From Chloroflexia bacterium (GTDB lineage: Bacteria > Chloroflexota > Chloroflexia > Chloroheliales > Chloroheliaceae): a stretch of DNA of 24,000 bases. The stretch is taken from assembly GCA_038245615.1 (NCBI GenBank), contig JBBRSG010000081.1:1069-25068 (forward strand), in the 5' to 3' direction. Made by a program: the position numbers and the translations under genes. Below, piece by piece: positions 11,533 through 19,757 of the stretch. The notes under the pieces are model-generated. The model saw nothing but the letters and a program-made list of their open reading frames with translations. It searched no databases and had not been told where the DNA came from. How positions within the stretch are numbered: position 1 is the first letter of the stretch; every line of letters begins with the position of its first letter.

Positions 11533-13998
11533 CTACTCAAAGACAAAGGTTTTAGGCCGCTCAACCGCTTCGGGCTGACTTTCCGGTTCGAGGAAAACAG
11601 CAGGCGGATAGCGGCGCGGTTGGTCGAGATTGCCGTTTTTAGCGGCTTGCAACAGCTTCCAGATTTTTTCGGGGCGCAAGGGCATATCAATTTCGATAAT
11701 GCCGTAAGGCGCAAGCGCATCCAGCACCGCATTGACGATGCAGGGTGGCCCGCCGGTACACCCGGCCTCGCCGACCCCCTTGGCCCCTAACGGGTTGCGC
11801 GGGGAAGGAGTTTCGATTATTCCGGTAAGAATGGATGGCACTTGTTCGGCGGTAGGGACAGTATAATCCATCAGCGTGCCGGTTAGCAACTGTCCATTTT
11901 CATCGTGAACGATTTCTTCAAAGAGGGCTTGACCAATCCCCTGAGCTAACCCGCCATGTACCTGGGCTTCCGCCAGGTAGTGATTAAGCACCCGCCCGCA
12001 GTCATCTACCGCGATATAGTTTAATACCTGCACTTCGCCAGTTTCGGTGTCCAACTCGACTATCGAAAGGTGCGCCCCCGATGGAAAGGTCGGGCCTTCC
12101 GGCTGGAAATCACGCCAGGCTGCCAGCCCTTCGATAGGTACGCCATTGACCGGGTTGGGGGCTTCTCGCTCAATCAAGTCGGGTTGGGCCTCGACCCGGC
12201 GGGCCAGTTCGCCCAGGCTGATACCACGCCCCGGCACGCCTTTGACCGTGATGTTACCTTCTTCCATTACCAAATCGTCGGGGGCGGCTTCCAGAAGCTG
12301 ACCTGCTAATTTGAGGGCTTTTTCGCGGGCCGCCTGAGCCGCCAGATAGACCACCGACCCGGCAATCTGGATAGTTCGGCTGCCAAAGGTGCCTATCCCA
12401 TAAGCCGGGAGGGAACTATCGTTCATCAGGACTTCGATTCTATCGCCGGGGAGCTTAAAGACCTCGGCGGCGATTTGGGCAAAGGCCGTAAAATGGCCCT
12501 GTCCGTTGTGGGCGACCCCGCTCTGCACCAGAATTGTTCCGTCCGGGCGAATTCGTACCGTCGCGGCTTCTTTGGGTGCGCCGGGCAGAGGTACGCCGCC
12601 GTCTCCGGCAATCTCCAGATAGGTCGCCAGCCCGATACCGATTTGCTTGGGGCTGTTGGCCTCGCGGCGGGCTTGTTGTTCGGAGCGCCACCAGCGATAT
12701 TCGCCTAAATCGAGGGCCAGCTTCATAGCGGCGGCATAGTTGCCACTGTCGTAGGTAATCCCGGTCAGAGCGGTATAAGGAAAAGCGCCTGGGGCGATAA
12801 AATTGCGAACTCGCACTAACGGTGGGTCCAGGTTCAACTCGCGGGCGACCCGCTCTATCGTGCGCTCCAGGACGTAAGCCGCTTCGGGTCGCCCCGCCCC
12901 ACGATAGGCCGAGGTCGCTACTTTGTTACTCAAAGCCCCGACCACCTGACTATCTATCGCGGCAAAGCGATATGGCCCGTTCAACATCCGAAGCGTGCCG
13001 ATTGGTACAATTGCCCCCGCCCCCGCCAAAAACGCCCCCAAATCGGCGATACTCCGCACTTTGAGGCCCAATATCCGACCATCGTTTTTAACGGCGGCTT
13101 CGATATAGTTTATCTGGCCGCGTCCGTGAGCCTGGGCTTGCATATTTTCGCTGCGACCTTCAATCCACTTGACTGGCTGACCCAGCTTGAGGGCCAGCGC
13201 CGCCGCCGCGACCTCTTCCCCCATAAAACGGGCCTTTGCTCCAAAGCCGCCGCCCACCTGGACGTTGATAACTCGTATCTGACGATGTTCTAGCCCTAGA
13301 TAATGGGCTAAAATATCGCGGGAGCCATAAACTCGCTGGCTCGATACCCAGGCGGTAAACTGCTCGGTAGCCGGGTCGTAATCGAACATGCAGGCCCGGT
13401 TTTCAATCGAGGCCGGGGCGAGGCGCTGATTTACTACTCGTAGCCGAATAATTCGGTCAGCCTGCTCGAAAGCGGCCTGAATATCGCCACTGCCGGAACG
13501 CTGGACAAAGGCGATATTGCTACCCAGTTCGTCATAGAGCAAAGGGGCATTGGGGGCGAGGGCCGCTTCGGGGTCGGCGACGGTGGGCAGAAGTTCGTAA
13601 TCTACCTTGACCAGTTCACGGGCATCCTGGGCGGCATATTGGTTGGTGGCGACTACCACCGCCACCGGGTCGCCGACATAGCGGGCGCGGTCTATCGCCA
13701 GCAGTTTGCGCTCAGGTTTTTTAATACCGGGCAGGACGATGGCATCCAGGTTGGGCAGGTGTCCCACCAATTCCGCCCCGCTAAAAGCGGCTACCACCCC
13801 TGGGGCGGCCTTAGCCGCTTCCAGCTTGATGCCCCGGATGAGCGCGTGGGCGTAAGGGCTGCGGACGACTGCCATATAGAGCGGAGCGGGCCGACCTTCG
13901 GGGGCGGACAAGTCGTCCACATATCCCAATGCGCCGGTAATCAGGCCATAATCTTCTTTACGCCGTTCCAGTCCGGCGGGTATCAGGCGTTCGGTCAT
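11533..13998 (-). CDS. Xanthine dehydrogenase-family molybdopterin-binding large subunit, form-II CoxL-like
   Basis: 821 aa. N-terminal a/b-hammerhead region (YVDD..., AVVRSPYAHA) and a GGGFGAK motif. The active-site loop AYRGAGR (12889-12909) is the signature usually quoted for form-II CoxL-like proteins. Confidence 0.9.
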   Translation of the reverse strand: MTERLIPAGLERRKEDYGLITGALGYVDDLSAPEGRPAPLYMAVVRSPYAHALIRGIKLEAAKAAPGVVAAFSGAELVGHLPNLDAIVLPGIKKPERKLLAIDRARYVGDPVAVVVATNQYAAQDARELVKVDYELLPTVADPEAALAPNAPLLYDELGSNIAFVQRSGSGDIQAAFEQADRIIRLRVVNQRLAPASIENRACMFDYDPATEQFTAWVSSQRVYGSRDILAHYLGLEHRQIRVINVQVGGGFGAKARFMGEEVAAAALALKLGQPVKWIEGRSENMQAQAHGRGQINYIEAAVKNDGRILGLKVRSIADLGAFLAGAGAIVPIGTLRMLNGPYRFAAIDSQVVGALSNKVATSAYRGAGRPEAAYVLERTIERVARELNLDPPLVRVRNFIAPGAFPYTALTGITYDSGNYAAAMKLALDLGEYRWWRSEQQARREANSPKQIGIGLATYLEIAGDGGVPLPGAPKEAATVRIRPDGTILVQSGVAHNGQGHFTAFAQIAAEVFKLPGDRIEVLMNDSSLPAYGIGTFGSRTIQIAGSVVYLAAQAAREKALKLAGQLLEAAPDDLVMEEGNITVKGVPGRGISLGELARRVEAQPDLIEREAPNPVNGVPIEGLAAWRDFQPEGPTFPSGAHLSIVELDTETGEVQVLNYIAVDDCGRVLNHYLAEAQVHGGLAQGIGQALFEEIVHDENGQLLTGTLMDYTVPTAEQVPSILTGIIETPSPRNPLGAKGVGEAGCTGGPPCIVNAVLDALAPYGIIEIDMPLRPEKIWKLLQAAKNGNLDQPRRYPPAVFLEPESQPEAVERPKTFVFE

Positions 13999-14188: not shown

Positions 14189-14674
14189 CTAACTGAGCGA
14201 CTTTAGCACTTCATCGGCGTGACCGGCGGCCTTGACCTTGCGCCAGATTTTGCCGATAGTTCCATCCGGGTTAATCAGGAAAGTGGTGCGCTCGATTCCC
14301 ATGTATTTTCTGCCGTACATATTCTTTTCTTTCCAGACACCATAGGCCATCGCAACCTCATGATTTTCGTCCGCCAGCAAAGGAAAAGGCAATTCGTATT
14401 TGGCAGCAAACTTGTCGTGGGCCTTGACGCTATCGGGGCTGATACCATAGACCAGCGCCCCGGCCTCGCTCAGTAAATCCATGTTATCGCGGAAGTTACA
14501 GGCTTCGGTGGTGCAGCCCGGCGTATCATCTTTGGGATAGAAATAGAGGATAATAGACGACGCGCCGAGTTGCTCTTTGAGGTGCAAGCTCTCGCCGCCG
14601 CTCATTGGTAGCTCGAAATCCGGGGCTTTATCGCCCTCTTTTAGGTCTAACGGCGCGGTTTCAACTTCACTCAT
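14189..14674 (-). CDS. bcp: Thioredoxin-dependent peroxiredoxin Bcp/PrxQ
   Basis: FYPKDDTPGCTTEACNF contains the peroxidatic Cys, with the resolving Cys 5 residues later. AGGAG lies 8 nt upstream. Confidence 0.92.
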   Translation of the reverse strand: MSEVETAPLDLKEGDKAPDFELPMSGGESLHLKEQLGASSIILYFYPKDDTPGCTTEACNFRDNMDLLSEAGALVYGISPDSVKAHDKFAAKYELPFPLLADENHEVAMAYGVWKEKNMYGRKYMGIERTTFLINPDGTIGKIWRKVKAAGHADEVLKSLS

Positions 14675-15962: not shown

Positions 15963-17912
15963 TTAACTATCAGTTGATTTGATATGGTTGAGCAACCCCC
16001 CGTCCAGCAATACCGCCAATTCGCGCTCACTGAGATTGTGATGCAAGGTCAGTTCCAGACTTTTGGTAATGTTTTTGACTACTATTTCGGTGGCGGCCCG
16101 AAGCTGGTCGCGCACCTGGCTAATCTCCAATTGGTCGCCTTGCTCGATGTGGGCATAATCCTCGGCCCTGCCAAAAGTGAGCGGCACAATCCCAAAGTTT
16201 ATCAAATTAGCCCGGTGAATCCGGGCAAACGAGAGCGCCAGCACCGCCTTGACCCCTAGATAGCGCGGAGCTAGGGCGGCATGTTCGCGGGCCGAACCCT
16301 GCCCATAGTTCGAGCCGCCTATCACGAAACTTGGCCCGGCGGCACGGGCGCGGGCCGCAAAAGTCTTATCCACCCGCTCAAAAGTATATTCGGCGATGGC
16401 GGGCAGGTTCGAGCGCAACGGCAGGATTTTCGCGCCCGCCGGAGAAATATGGTCGGTAGTTATATTATCGCCCATTTTGAGCAGTACCGGCCCGCTCAGG
16501 GTGTCTTCTAGCGCCCCAAACCGGGGCAGAGGCTTAATATTCGGCCCGCGCAGAATTTCGACGGCTTCGGCTTCCGCGCCCTCGGTAGCGGGCGACATCA
16601 GTAGGGCATCGTTTATCTCGAAACGTTCCGGCATGGCGATAGTCGGATACTCGCCCAGGTCTCGTGGGTCGGTGATGACTCCAGTCAAAGCAGTGGCAGC
16701 ACAGGTTTCGGGGCTGGCGAGATAAACTTGCGCGTCCGGGGTGCCGCTCCGTCCCTCAAAATTGCGGTTAAACGAGCGGACGGCGACCCCGCCGCTGGAA
16801 GGAGCCATCCCCATGCCGACGCACGGCCCGCAGGCTGACTCCAGCATTCGCGCTCCGGCGGCAATCATATCGCCCAGTCCGCCGCTTCGGGCAATCGTGG
16901 TATAGACCTGGCGCGAACCGGGGCTGACGGTCATACTCAAGTCGGGGCTGATGGCCTTATTTCGCAGAATATGGGCTACTATCGAGAGGTCGCGGTACGA
17001 GCTATTGGTGCAAGAGCCGACTGAAACCTGCTGCACCGCTAACCCGGCGACCTGGCGCACTGGCACGACTTTATCGGGGCTGTGGGGTAGCGCAATCAAC
17101 GGCTCAAGGCTATCGAGGTCAATCTCAATTTGCTCATCGTATTCGGCATCTGGGTCAGCGGCAAAGGGTTGCCAGCTACTCTCACGGCCTTGCGCGGCCA
17201 GATAGCGCCGGGTCTGGTCGTCGCTGGGGAAAAGCGAGGTAGTCGCGCCCAGTTCTGCCCCCATATTGGCAATCGTGGTGCGGTCAATCACTCCTAGCGC
17301 GACGACGCCCGGCCCGAAATATTCCACGATTTTACCAACCCCGCCCTTGACCGAGAGCCGTCGCAACAGCTCCAAAATTACGTCCTTGCCACTGACCCAG
17401 GGCTGCAAAGTTCCCGTAAGCCTGACTCCCAGAATTTTGGGCATCGCCAGATAAAACGGGCCACCGCCCATCGCTACAGCTACATCCAGCCCGCCCGCCC
17501 CGATTGCAAGCATGCCCAATCCGCCGCAAAGGGGGGTATGGCTGTCACTGCCCAAAAGGGTTTTGCCGGGGACGGCGAAACGCTCGGCGTGAACCTGATG
17601 ACAGATGCCGTTGCCGGGCCGCGAGAAATAGATCCCGAACTTTTTGGCGGTGGATTGCAAAAAGCGGTGGTCGTCGGCGTTCTCGAAGCCGATTTGCAGC
17701 ATATTGTGGTCTACGTAGCTAACCGAAACCTCGGTCTTGACTCGCGGAATCCCAATAGACTCGAACTGCAAATAGGCTGCCGTGCCACTGGCATCCTGGG
17801 TCAAGGTCTGGTCAATCCGAAGTGCGATTTCCTGACCAGCTATCATTTCGCCCGAAATCAGGTGGGCCGCCAGGATTTTTCGGGCAAGATTACTTCCCAT
17901 TTTTGCTTTCAA
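15963..17912 (-). CDS. Aconitase-family protein (about 650 aa, Aquifex-type putative aconitate hydratase)
   Basis: Fe-S ligand and active-site motifs GSDSHTP, GSCTNSS and CGPCVGMG, plus a C-terminal swivel domain (GGSNYGQGSAREHAA). The start is either TTG at 17912 or ATG at 17900. AAGGAG lies at 17915-17920 on the coding strand. Confidence 0.92.
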   Translation of the reverse strand: MKAKMGSNLARKILAAHLISGEMIAGQEIALRIDQTLTQDASGTAAYLQFESIGIPRVKTEVSVSYVDHNMLQIGFENADDHRFLQSTAKKFGIYFSRPGNGICHQVHAERFAVPGKTLLGSDSHTPLCGGLGMLAIGAGGLDVAVAMGGGPFYLAMPKILGVRLTGTLQPWVSGKDVILELLRRLSVKGGVGKIVEYFGPGVVALGVIDRTTIANMGAELGATTSLFPSDDQTRRYLAAQGRESSWQPFAADPDAEYDEQIEIDLDSLEPLIALPHSPDKVVPVRQVAGLAVQQVSVGSCTNSSYRDLSIVAHILRNKAISPDLSMTVSPGSRQVYTTIARSGGLGDMIAAGARMLESACGPCVGMGMAPSSGGVAVRSFNRNFEGRSGTPDAQVYLASPETCAATALTGVITDPRDLGEYPTIAMPERFEINDALLMSPATEGAEAEAVEILRGPNIKPLPRFGALEDTLSGPVLLKMGDNITTDHISPAGAKILPLRSNLPAIAEYTFERVDKTFAARARAAGPSFVIGGSNYGQGSAREHAALAPRYLGVKAVLALSFARIHRANLINFGIVPLTFGRAEDYAHIEQGDQLEISQVRDQLRAATEIVVKNITKSLELTLHHNLSERELAVLLDGGLLNHIKSTDS

Positions 17913-18030: not shown

Positions 18031-18723
18031 TCATCCCCATTCCAAATGTTGATTGAGCCAGTTTCCGAAATCCTGCCGACTTTCGGGGCTGGTAGCGTGG
18101 GCAATCGGATATTCCTGGTAAGTGACATGGACTCCACCGACTTCCAGTATTTCGCGCACTTCGCGTCCAAGTCCCACTTTAAGCATTTGGTCCTCGATGC
18201 CGTGCGCCAGAAACGCATTTTTGTCCTTAAAGCATCCCGCCGCGATTTTTTCGGCATATTCCGGGCTGATGAAGCCGCTGTGCGGCAAAATTCCCGCCAG
18301 CTTATCAGGATAGGTCGCCGCCAGCATCAGGCTCATGGCCGCGCCTTGACTAAAACCACCTACGTAAATTTGGGTAGGGTCTACCTTCACCCCGGATAGG
18401 TCGCCCAACTGGTCAAGTAACTGCCCCAACTTCTCAAGGCTGACATCGCGCAAGCCGGGGTCGGGGCGGGCCGGTTTCGTCCATTCGTACCACTTCCAGC
18501 TACCCCGCGGATTATCGCTGACTATCCCAGGGCCACGCGGGGCCACAATCAGCACCCGTTTATCTACAAACGGCACGAGTTCGTATATATCACTTTCGTT
18601 TGCGCCCCAACCGTGAAGCATAATCAGGGCCGGATGTGCGCTTGGGCCAGGCTCAGGCCGTCGTATCAAGGCTGGTAGCGCCCCACTGGTAATCAACTCC
18701 GTTCCGCTTATATCAGGTTCCAT
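18031..18723 (-). CDS. Alpha/beta hydrolase (phospholipase/carboxylesterase, Abhydrolase_2-like)
   Basis: Oxyanion region MLHGWGANE, nucleophile elbow GFSQGA, late acidic residue and His (GIEDQ..., PIAH). AAGGAG lies 8 nt upstream. Confidence 0.85.
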   Translation of the reverse strand: MEPDISGTELITSGALPALIRRPEPGPSAHPALIMLHGWGANESDIYELVPFVDKRVLIVAPRGPGIVSDNPRGSWKWYEWTKPARPDPGLRDVSLEKLGQLLDQLGDLSGVKVDPTQIYVGGFSQGAAMSLMLAATYPDKLAGILPHSGFISPEYAEKIAAGCFKDKNAFLAHGIEDQMLKVGLGREVREILEVGGVHVTYQEYPIAHATSPESRQDFGNWLNQHLEWG

Positions 18724-18830: not shown

Positions 18831-19553
18831 CTAGTCTTTCAGCGACTTTAGCACGTTTTTGAGAAAGATAGCTTCCGGGACTGCGCCTTCCACCTCGACT
18901 TTTTCATTGAAAATAATTTTCGGAACGCCGTAGACATAATATTGCTGCGAGAGTTCCTGAAATTCGTTGGCCTCGACAATATCCGCCGTGATGTGAGGAC
19001 TGACCATAGCGAAGTGGTTTGCCATCCGCACCGCGGACGGACAATAACTTCAGGTAGGAGTGACAAACACCACGATATTCACCGGCTGATTTATTTCGCC
19101 GACTAAGCGTCGAGTATTTTCGGTCAGGGTGGTTTGGCCTTTGGACAGGTCTATCAGGTTTTCGACCAGCGTACCGAATTCGTAGCCACTGGGAATCCCG
19201 AAAAAGCGGGACTGCCCGGCTAACTTTTCAGCCCGATAAACCGCCGCGGGCAATAGCGAACCGTCCAGCCCGACCGCTTCGGCGGCTTGCTGGCCGTCGG
19301 GGCTATCCAGATCATTAAATTTTAGGTTGAGCTGGGGAGCGATTTCGGTCAGTTCGGCATAAAGCTGGAAAGCGGTGCGGCAAGCCTCCCCGACCATCAG
19401 GGCTGCATCCTCGCTCTCCGGGTCGAATAGCTCGGCGGCCTCAGCCGTATGAAAACTTCCCCGTGAGAAAAACTCGATTTCAACTGGCTGTTCCAGTTCT
19501 TGCCCAAAATGCTGCTCTAAATATTCGCGGTCTTCTTCCCCGATAAGCGCCAT
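18831..19553 (-). CDS. Two-domain thioredoxin-fold protein (PDO / glutaredoxin-like domain family) with in-frame TGA read as selenocysteine (U-S-Y-C); 240 aa
   Basis: The tracked ORFs 19050..19553 and 18831..19031 are in the same frame, separated only by the TGA (19050-19052) and six sense codons. The joined sequence reads ...VNIVVFVTPT-U-SYCPSAVRMANHFAMVSPHITADIVEANEF...YGVPKIIFN...VEGAVPE. This is colinear with the second CPYC domain of Pyrococcus PDO-type proteins (VFVTPTCPYCPLAVRMAHKFA...), recalled from memory. Confidence 0.8.
19019..19044 (-). promoter_or_regulatory. Candidate bacterial SECIS hairpin downstream of the TGA
   Basis: mRNA: UGA-AGUUA-UUG(U)CCGUCCG-CGGUG-CGGAUGGCAA. The 7-bp upper stem includes one G-U pair. 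A 3-bp lower stem lies after a bulged U. The GGU-containing apical loop starts 16 nt after the UGA. Confidence 0.6.
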
Positions 19554-19578: not shown

Positions 19579-19700
19579 CAGTGGTCAGTGGTTAGTAGGG
19601 TAGTTTTGAGTTAAACTGCCAAGTATTACCTATATTTACTCAGCACTTAGCAATCAGCACTCAGGACTTTTCTGACCACTGGACACTGACCACTGACCAC
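19579..19700. repeat. Intergenic repeat element copy E
   Basis: CAGTGGTCAGTGG at 19579-19591. TAGTTTTGAGTTAAAC at 19601-19616. TTTACTCAG at 19635-19643. CTGACCACTGGACACTGACCACTGACCAC at 19672-19700. Colinear with copy D. Confidence 0.8.
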
Positions 19701-19757
19701 TTTTATCCCGACAATTGTAACCCAGGCAGGCGGTTGGCGCAAACCGGGGGTGTCTCG

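Follow-up and report, generated by a model that had tools for sequence, protein, structure and literature searches.

A UGA-interrupted gene of the protein disulfide oxidoreductase family from a Chloroflexia bacterium very probably encodes a selenoprotein

We analysed a stretch of 24,000 nucleotides from a genome assembly labelled Chloroflexia bacterium (hereafter, the window), in which two open reading frames on the minus strand, one of 167 residues (19050..19553) and the other of 66 residues (18831..19031), are separated by six sense codons (Table 1). The upstream frame opens with an ATG (19553..19551) and runs through 167 sense codons to ...N-I-V-V-F-V-T-P-T, where it meets a TGA. Behind the TGA the same frame continues as S-Y-C-P-S-A-V-R-M-A... 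for 72 further open codons until a TAG, and the GTG (19031..19029) taken as the start of the shorter frame follows directly after S-Y-C-P-S-A. With the TGA counted, the joined frame has 240 sense positions. The coordinates of both frames, the six bridging codons and the peptide quoted in the initial annotation proved exact when the minus strand was read again, and its observation of a single Cys in the N-terminal unit was borne out, the Cys at position 58 (context E-A-C-R-T-A) being the only one upstream of the TGA. The open frame past the TGA is more than chance; by our estimate, a frame would stay open for 72 codons past a stop with a probability of about 3% at the composition of the window. 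Moreover, residues 159–235, which lie on both sides of the TGA, match Pfam Thioredoxin_3 as one domain (E = 2.3e-16). The neighbouring genes encode an Abhydrolase_2 hydrolase and a PMT_2 glycosyltransferase, and no promoter or terminator was found by scanning around the gene.

Table 1. Features of the UGA-interrupted gene, in window coordinates
Feature	Position	Strand	Description and basis
Probable selenoprotein gene of the PDO family	18831..19553	minus	240 residues including Sec168, plus TAG; translation, TIGR02187.2 and PDB matches
UGA codon 168, predicted to be read as Sec	19050..19052	minus	N-terminal (nucleophilic) position of U-S-Y-C in the second thioredoxin fold
Codon of Cys171 (TGT)	19041..19043	minus	Resolving Cys of U-x-x-C; invariant across all alignments
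Codon of Cys58 (TGC)	19380..19382	minus	Sole Cys of the N-terminal thioredoxin fold; read directly and from alignments
Stop codon of the PDO gene (TAG)	18833..18831	minus	Direct translation
Predicted bacterial SECIS hairpin within the CDS	19022..19040	minus	CCGUCCGC-GGU-GCGGAUGG; 8 bp, GGU apical loop

For the profile search the TGA was written as Cys. The joined protein, for which membership in the protein disulfide oxidoreductase (PDO) family TIGR02187 had been proposed, scored 203.4 bits (E = 2.6e-60) against a curated cutoff of 185 with NCBIfam model TIGR02187.2 (short name ‘PDO_seleno_TRX’, description ‘protein disulfide oxidoreductase’), its residues 6–236 being aligned with profile positions 2–208/209; the matches to the NCBIfam models for AhpF and AhpF homologues were weaker. 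The best solved relatives were the PDOs of Pyrococcus horikoshii (1J08, E = 4e-39) and P. furiosus (1A8L, E = 2e-37), followed in the PDB ranking by the PDOs of Aquifex and Aeropyrum and by the AhpF N-terminal domain. In the alignment with 1J08 and 1A8L, VFVTPT-[TGA]-SYCPSAVRMA falls on VFVTPT-C-PYCPLAVRMA, in agreement with the Pyrococcus motif VFVTPTCPYCPLAVRMAHKFA that the initial annotation had given. The TGA is opposite Cys146 of 1A8L, so that U168-S-Y-C171 corresponds to C146-P-Y-C149; it thus occupies, as had been suggested, the place of the first, N-terminal redox Cys of the second-domain CxxC. In classical PDOs, the position of Cys58, which is invariant in an alignment of 40 sequences, is taken by the second Cys of the N-terminal CxxC (residue 38 of 1A8L); where that motif has its first Cys, the window protein has Glu55. 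Of the second CxxC that marks the N-terminal fold of classical two-site PDOs, Cys58 alone is left, and the protein should for this reason be classified neither as a two-site PDO nor as an isomerase.

As a structural proxy we used the model of P0002, the closest Cys-form homologue (60% identical to the window protein and aligned with it without large gaps). This model (pLDDT 93.4) has two thioredoxin folds, a TM score of 0.81/0.87 to 1A8L and TM scores of 0.78–0.88 to PDO structures, with AhpF N-terminal domains as the next group of matches. Through this proxy, the window protein is predicted to be a single chain of ~25 kDa with two thioredoxin folds in tandem. U168-S-Y-C171 follows the strand V-V-F-V-T-P-T, and the helix begins at residue 171 in the P0002 model. 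We accordingly describe the product as a member of the PDO/AhpF-N-terminal-domain-like family (TIGR02187) that stands alone as a protein, is made up of two thioredoxin folds and has its only complete redox centre in the second of them (U168-S-Y-C171, where the helix starts).

A protein search returned the window's own shortened product together with six others of 165–169 residues, all ending in ...VFVTPT, as well as full-length Cys forms of 239–245 residues with 53–60% identity. The DNA was examined for five of the six further shortened products, which derive from GCA_038210655.1, GCA_036261665.1 (labelled Chloroflexia bacterium), GCA_025491075.1, JGI metagenomes and an ENA farmland metagenome. 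All five are distinct orthologues, 58–69% identical to the window protein, and all five carry TGA at the equivalent of codon 168, followed by 72–80 open codons for a C-terminal part that is highly conserved, without a second stop or a frameshift in any of them. The window gene itself, TGA included, was found again in the Logan assembly of run SRR19962014 (a contig of 1.8 kb), which comes from an independent assembler, although perhaps from the same reads. More distant homologues, about 78 of them and spread over many phyla of bacteria and archaea, have TGC or TGT at this position; these Cys controls (identity of 43% or less) were collected by a tblastn-type scan of contigs with the clade alignment, in which unbroken matches ranked first. 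The comparison of this codon among orthologues and Cys-form homologues, proposed at the outset as a check, thus gave TGA in the five orthologues examined and Cys codons in the Cys-form homologues. In every source the gene had been called as a ‘hypothetical protein’ of 165–169 residues ending at the TGA, with a separate Thioredoxin_3 fragment of 60–74 residues called alongside in most loci (none in L004), a splitting by gene callers that had been anticipated. Recognition of the Sec codon would restore a complete redox enzyme from these mis-annotated pieces in every source examined. A scan of the window and of loci L002, L004, L006, L009, L091 and L093 for other genes that have Cys-type motifs and are interrupted by UGA left the PDO gene as the only credible case.

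Two of the Cys forms, P0003 and P0005, share a gene neighbourhood (PfkB, PDO, TPR, 4HBT, M24 peptidase, hydrolase, GGDEF) with the Sec forms in L004 and L009 and are therefore true orthologues that differ as Cys and Sec versions. In a neighbour-joining tree the Cys form P0002 is placed inside or beside the Sec group, the bootstrap value being 144/200 for the Sec forms plus P0002 and 24/200 for the Sec forms alone. This suggests at least one switch between Sec and Cys within the clade, the branching order being weakly supported. The placement of P0002 fits the interconversions of Sec and Cys that have been described (PMC1794560).

Pairwise Nei-Gojobori estimates were made for the window and its orthologues. 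Synonymous sites are near saturation for most pairs (pS 0.6–0.8). Downstream of the TGA, dN is 0.02–0.24 and dN/dS, where computable, about 0.06–0.14, which is lower than upstream of the TGA. The part behind the UGA is under strong purifying selection, and a dead 3′ fragment is excluded. The initial annotation had held that this part is alive and had named neutral decay in relatives as a finding that would overturn its reading; in the five TGA-bearing orthologues we saw conservation and purifying selection, and no such decay.

A hairpin begins 9 nt past the UGA (Table 1). Its stem includes one G-U pair among the 8 bp, its loop lies 17 nt from the UGA, and it folds at −12.2 kcal/mol alone and is also present in the MFE structure of the region. 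According to published constraints on bacterial SECIS elements (PMC13188914), the loop measures 3–9 nt and has G in its first two positions, the upper stem has 4–16 bp, the loop lies 16–37 nt from the UGA and the MFE does not exceed −7.5 kcal/mol; the window hairpin agrees with all four constraints (GGU loop, 8 bp, 17 nt, −12.2 kcal/mol). At gathering thresholds, Rfam has no match within the window, and nothing is concluded from this. No stretch of the gene that is invariant in nucleotides across the six sequences is longer than the 20 nt that contain the hairpin; the 6-nt ACCTGA comes second. Codons were compared in those columns of the window and the five orthologues where the amino acid does not vary and has at least four-fold degeneracy; here the codon is invariant at 5 of 5 positions in the hairpin and at 1 of 45 outside it (Fisher p = 2.8e-6). 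The syntenic Cys-form orthologues L091 and L093 have the identical peptide P-S-A-V-R-M in other codons (CCC-TCG-GCG-GTC-AGA or CCT-TCG-GCA-GTG-CGC), with which no hairpin is possible. From these codon comparisons, the hairpin appears to serve the UGA and not the protein, and the contrast in codons between Sec and Cys forms is the strongest single argument. Being invariant within the six-member clade, the hairpin has no covariation of its own there; three metagenome Sec forms in the register of the window show compensatory changes (U-A to G-C and C-G to U-A), with 100% of cells paired, a count over nine sequences that were chosen because they pair in this register and that is consequently biased and supportive only. 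The ACC codon before the UGA was considered as a context signal and no claim is made for it, ACC being also the majority codon in the Cys forms.

The distribution of Sec forms across the family was surveyed in metagenomes with the pattern V-F-V-T-P-T-TGA-x-x-C-P, in which only the bases determined by the amino acids were fixed. At least 120 Sec-form stretches were obtained, mostly from soil and sediment metagenomes, and all 80 of those inspected were genuine Sec-form PDO genes, with downstream ORFs of 68–129 residues and a motif that reads mostly U-P-H-C or U-P-Y-C. A simple best-hairpin search over 83 Sec forms and 78 Cys forms found hairpins within all four bSECIS constraints in 60/83 and 10/78, respectively, and at a spacing of 17–18 nt in 46/83 and 3/78. 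The GC content of the Sec forms (0.65) exceeds that of the Cys controls (0.56), which inflates the gap in hairpin energy and affects the geometric criteria less. A single consensus structure for the 83 Sec forms was tried and rejected, the register of the stem differing among subfamilies.

The genetic code and the Sec machinery were considered next to these data. TGA ends 3 of the 18 annotated genes of the window, the other genes contain no internal TGA, and the L004 orthologue itself ends in TGA; with TGA otherwise a stop in these genes, a genome-wide reassignment of UGA is very improbable. Pfam searches of 20 window ORFs gave no selA, selB or selD, and ARAGORN detected no tRNA gene in the window and no tRNA-Sec in 215 sequences (214 loci and the window). 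In a tblastn search of all loci with an approximate E. coli SelD query, only AIR-synthase-like ORFs of 25–28% identity were hit, adjoining Cys-form PDOs in L011, L014 and L015; they are not evidence of SelD. Decoding as Sec is inferred because the UGA is conserved and a SECIS is present, and not from the machinery; on these sequence grounds, Sec is almost certainly inserted. Taking all of this together, we consider it highly probable that a single gene spans the two ORFs and encodes a cytoplasmic thiol/selenol-disulfide oxidoreductase of 240 residues (TIGR02187), with UGA 168 decoded as Sec. Chloroflexota genomes that carry the Sec-form gene are then likely Sec decoders. A Chloroflexota origin of the window is also the most likely one by its aconitase, whose nearest named homologues are proteins of Chloroflexia or Chloroflexi MAGs (79–80% identity) and which shares 89% identity with the aconitase encoded on the contig of orthologue L002.

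Other readings of the TGA have to be weighed against decoding as Sec. It is scarcely credible that the codon is a lesion, in which a TGC or TGT was turned into TGA by nonsense mutation or by an error of sequencing or assembly and the 72 codons behind it are a dead remnant. A single base separates TGA from either Cys codon and the callers in all sources stop there; however, the TGA recurs in the window and five further orthologues between which synonymous divergence is saturated, the downstream part evolves at a dN/dS of 0.06–0.14 with no frameshift or second stop, a different assembler returned the same codon, and a selected RNA hairpin follows it. A pseudogene or an error is in effect refuted by these conservation data. 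We regard it as extremely improbable that the locus yields two polypeptides, the first stopping at the TGA and the second, a Thioredoxin_3 fragment of 60–74 residues, starting from an internal GTG or ATG and perhaps assembling with the first non-covalently. A second small ORF with Pfam Thioredoxin_3 matches is indeed called in most callable loci (none being called in L004), but its called start differs among loci (60, 64 or 74 residues), so that no start is conserved. Furthermore, the six bridging codons between TGA and GTG are conserved as protein and include the essential Cys171, which would be missing from the fragment, as would the nucleophile and a beta-strand that belong to its fold; no such split occurs among the ~78 Cys-form homologues, and the geometry of the hairpin is that of a SECIS and not of a ribosome-binding site.

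The UGA might also be read by a tRNA other than that for Sec, either through reassignment of the code (codes 4/25) or through near-cognate read-through, stimulated by the hairpin, with Trp, Cys or Arg. Read-through can be stimulated by stem-loops, and the searches of the window gave no gene of the Sec machinery. Against this stand the use of TGA as a terminator elsewhere in the window and in the L004 orthologue, the position of the codon exactly on the catalytic Cys of a family with known Sec forms, and the fit of the hairpin to the SelB-type SECIS consensus (G at the first loop positions, 17-nt spacing), and we judge a reading by another tRNA to be very improbable.

The PDO family is, according to the literature, already catalogued as a UxxC selenoprotein, which answers a question that the initial annotation had left open; with both the family and the UxxC motif catalogued, general knowledge of selenoproteins is unchanged and the locus is no surprise to a specialist. 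With the catalogued Sec forms of TIGR02187 the window protein shares the family (the curated cutoff being passed), U-x-x-C at the same site, a SECIS just downstream within the CDS and widespread Cys-form homologues. What sets it apart is its U-[S/G]-Y-C motif, an N-terminal fold with one Cys and an origin in Chloroflexota and soil. The motif of the window clade differs from the U-P-H-C or U-P-Y-C of most of the 80 metagenome Sec forms; its members come from Chloroflexota-labelled MAGs and from soil and farmland metagenomes, whereas the catalogued Sec forms belong to anaerobic thermophiles; and its N-terminal fold has one Cys. Sec use is usually considered rare in oxic soils and in the Chloroflexota lineage. 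We put forward, tentatively and as a possibility that falls short of probable, that the U-[S/G]-Y-C clade is a distinct single-redox-centre subfamily of soil Chloroflexota with its own frozen SECIS (8 bp, GGU triloop, 17-nt spacing), together with a place for the PDO/AhpF-NTD-like family among the commoner thiol-oxidoreductase selenoproteins of oxic soils and with interconversion of Sec and Cys among syntenic orthologues. These orthologues are a natural experiment, in which the same peptide is encoded with UGA and the hairpin or with UGC/UGU and without it, and the locus shows a SECIS being built from synonymous sites, which it then freezes.

The tandem thioredoxin folds of the window protein are shared with the PDOs of P. 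furiosus (1A8L), P. horikoshii (1J08), Aquifex (2AYT/2YWM) and Aeropyrum (2HLS), as is a near-identical stretch around the C-terminal site (VFVTPT-C/U-x-Y-C-P-x-A-V-R-M-A). Classical PDOs have two CxxC sites, all Cys, whereas the window protein has one N-terminal Cys and Sec as its C-terminal nucleophile; it also carries an insertion of ~15–20 residues in the N-terminal unit (approximately residues 33–55, with lower pLDDT in the P0002 model). The N-terminal domain of AhpF has a single active CxxC, located in the second fold. This arrangement, a double thioredoxin fold with a single redox CxxC in the second fold, is common to the domains from Salmonella (1ZYN/1HYU), E. coli (4O5Q) and Enterococcus (5H29), and Foldseek matched the P0002 model to AhpF N-terminal domains with E = 1e-13 to 1e-15, the sequence identity being only ~17–20%. 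AhpF has a fused FAD/NAD(P)H thioredoxin-reductase-like module, whereas the window protein is free-standing, its gene ending at 18831 with no adjacent ahpC. In its single redox centre, the window protein resembles the AhpF N-terminal domain more than a two-centre archaeal PDO. The hairpin, in turn, has in common with E. coli fdhF-type SECIS elements and the bSECISearch consensus its location in the CDS just 3′ of the UGA, a small apical loop starting with G-G/U and a spacing of 16–37 nt; compared with the E. coli fdhF SECIS, it has no sequence similarity and no identified bulged U, and SelB binding is putative.

In the mechanism that we propose, a ribosome at the UGA would meet the 8-bp hairpin with its GGU loop, 9 nt downstream, which would act as a bacterial SECIS and recruit SelB-GTP-Sec-tRNA(Sec), with the result that Sec is inserted instead of termination. 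The product would be a disulfide reductase or a thiol-transferase relay with its single redox centre in the second fold, where a selenolate would surpass a thiolate both as nucleophile and as leaving group. The reductase/thiol-transferase activity of Sulfolobus PDO comes from its C-terminal site, and isomerase activity needs both sites (PMC7465337), and because of the latter no isomerase role is expected for the window protein. From the parallels with Sulfolobus PDO and AhpF, we therefore expect a reductase relay with a single centre and not an isomerase. Homologues alone point to its partners: in Sulfolobus, thioredoxin reductase reduces PDO, which then regenerates Bcp peroxiredoxins (PMC7465337), and by analogy the reductant of the window protein would probably be an NAD(P)H-dependent flavoprotein of the thioredoxin-reductase type, with electrons passing onward to peroxiredoxins or other disulfide substrates. 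An AhpC/TSA gene is located at 14189..14674, 4.4 kb from the PDO gene, a linkage that is not conserved in L002, L004 and L009, and its product is a candidate partner only.

Among the 80 metagenome Sec-form genes of the PDO family that were read (L095-L174, among at least 120 matches listed), 51 encode the redox motif U-P-H-C and 27 the motif U-P-Y-C; C-P-Y-C is the motif in nearly all of approximately 78 Cys-form PDOs. Judged from these sequences, His at position +2 seems to track with Sec in this family, an association which may stem from a single large clade and not from any chemical requirement. The Thr codon immediately 5' of the UGA (19053-19055, minus strand) reads ACC in the window gene and also in each of its five TGA-bearing orthologues (L002, L004, L006, L009 and L010), and it is the sole degenerate codon outside the SECIS hairpin to be frozen across this set. 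ACC is likewise the commonest codon at this position in the Cys forms; ACA, in turn, was found in none of the 80 metagenome Sec forms read among the at least 120 listed, versus 23 of 80 Cys forms. This pattern could be either a context effect or a consequence of GC bias.

An Abhydrolase_2 gene lies directly downstream of the PDO gene in one part of the clade, namely in the window, in L001 (the Logan contig reproducing the window gene), in the Sec-form loci L002 and L006 and on the contig of the closest Cys-form homologue, P0002. An alternative neighbourhood, PfkB-PDO-TPR-4HBT-M24, is common to the Sec-form loci L004 and L009 and the Cys forms P0003 and P0005, and there are therefore two conserved contexts for one PDO orthologue group. 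The 5' intergenic region of the window PDO gene (19579-19701) was observed to contain a 17-nt inverted repeat, with arms AGTGGTCAGTGGTTAGT and ACTGACCACTGACCACT (94% complementary, spacing 88 nt), along with short direct repeats of the GGTCAGT type. These repeats could serve as an operator or a structured leader; alternatively, they could be a small repeat element.

Further genes of the window
Feature	Position	Strand	Remark
Abhydrolase_2 gene (phospholipase/carboxylesterase-type)	18031-18723	-	immediately after PDO gene
Aconitase gene	15963-17912		
AhpC/TSA-family peroxiredoxin gene	14189-14674	-	Pfam E = 4.7e-40
Molybdopterin-binding large subunit, xanthine-dehydrogenase or aldehyde-oxidase-family enzyme	11533-13998	-	

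The peroxiredoxin gene and the PDO gene are 4.4 kb apart on the minus strand. The peroxiredoxin is a candidate acceptor of electrons from the PDO protein; no AhpC/TSA peroxiredoxin gene was present in the PDO-orthologue neighbourhoods of L002, L004 and L009. Some xanthine-dehydrogenase/aldehyde-oxidase-family enzymes, the group to which the molybdopterin-binding subunit belongs, use a labile selenium cofactor. In three MAGs, ORFs directly adjoining Cys-form PDO genes (L011, 10945-11574; L014, 10948-11574; L015, 10289-11047) matched E. coli SelD with 25-28% identity and a best E-value of 2.5e-14, the query being an approximate SelD sequence; the adjoining ORF is a member of the AIR-synthase/SelD-like superfamily. 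Several relatives of the window aconitase (P0173, P0176-P0178, P0198 and others) are proteins of approximately 960 residues in which aconitase is fused to a methyltransferase domain, and in L002 a stand-alone methyltransferase gene is located two genes after the aconitase.
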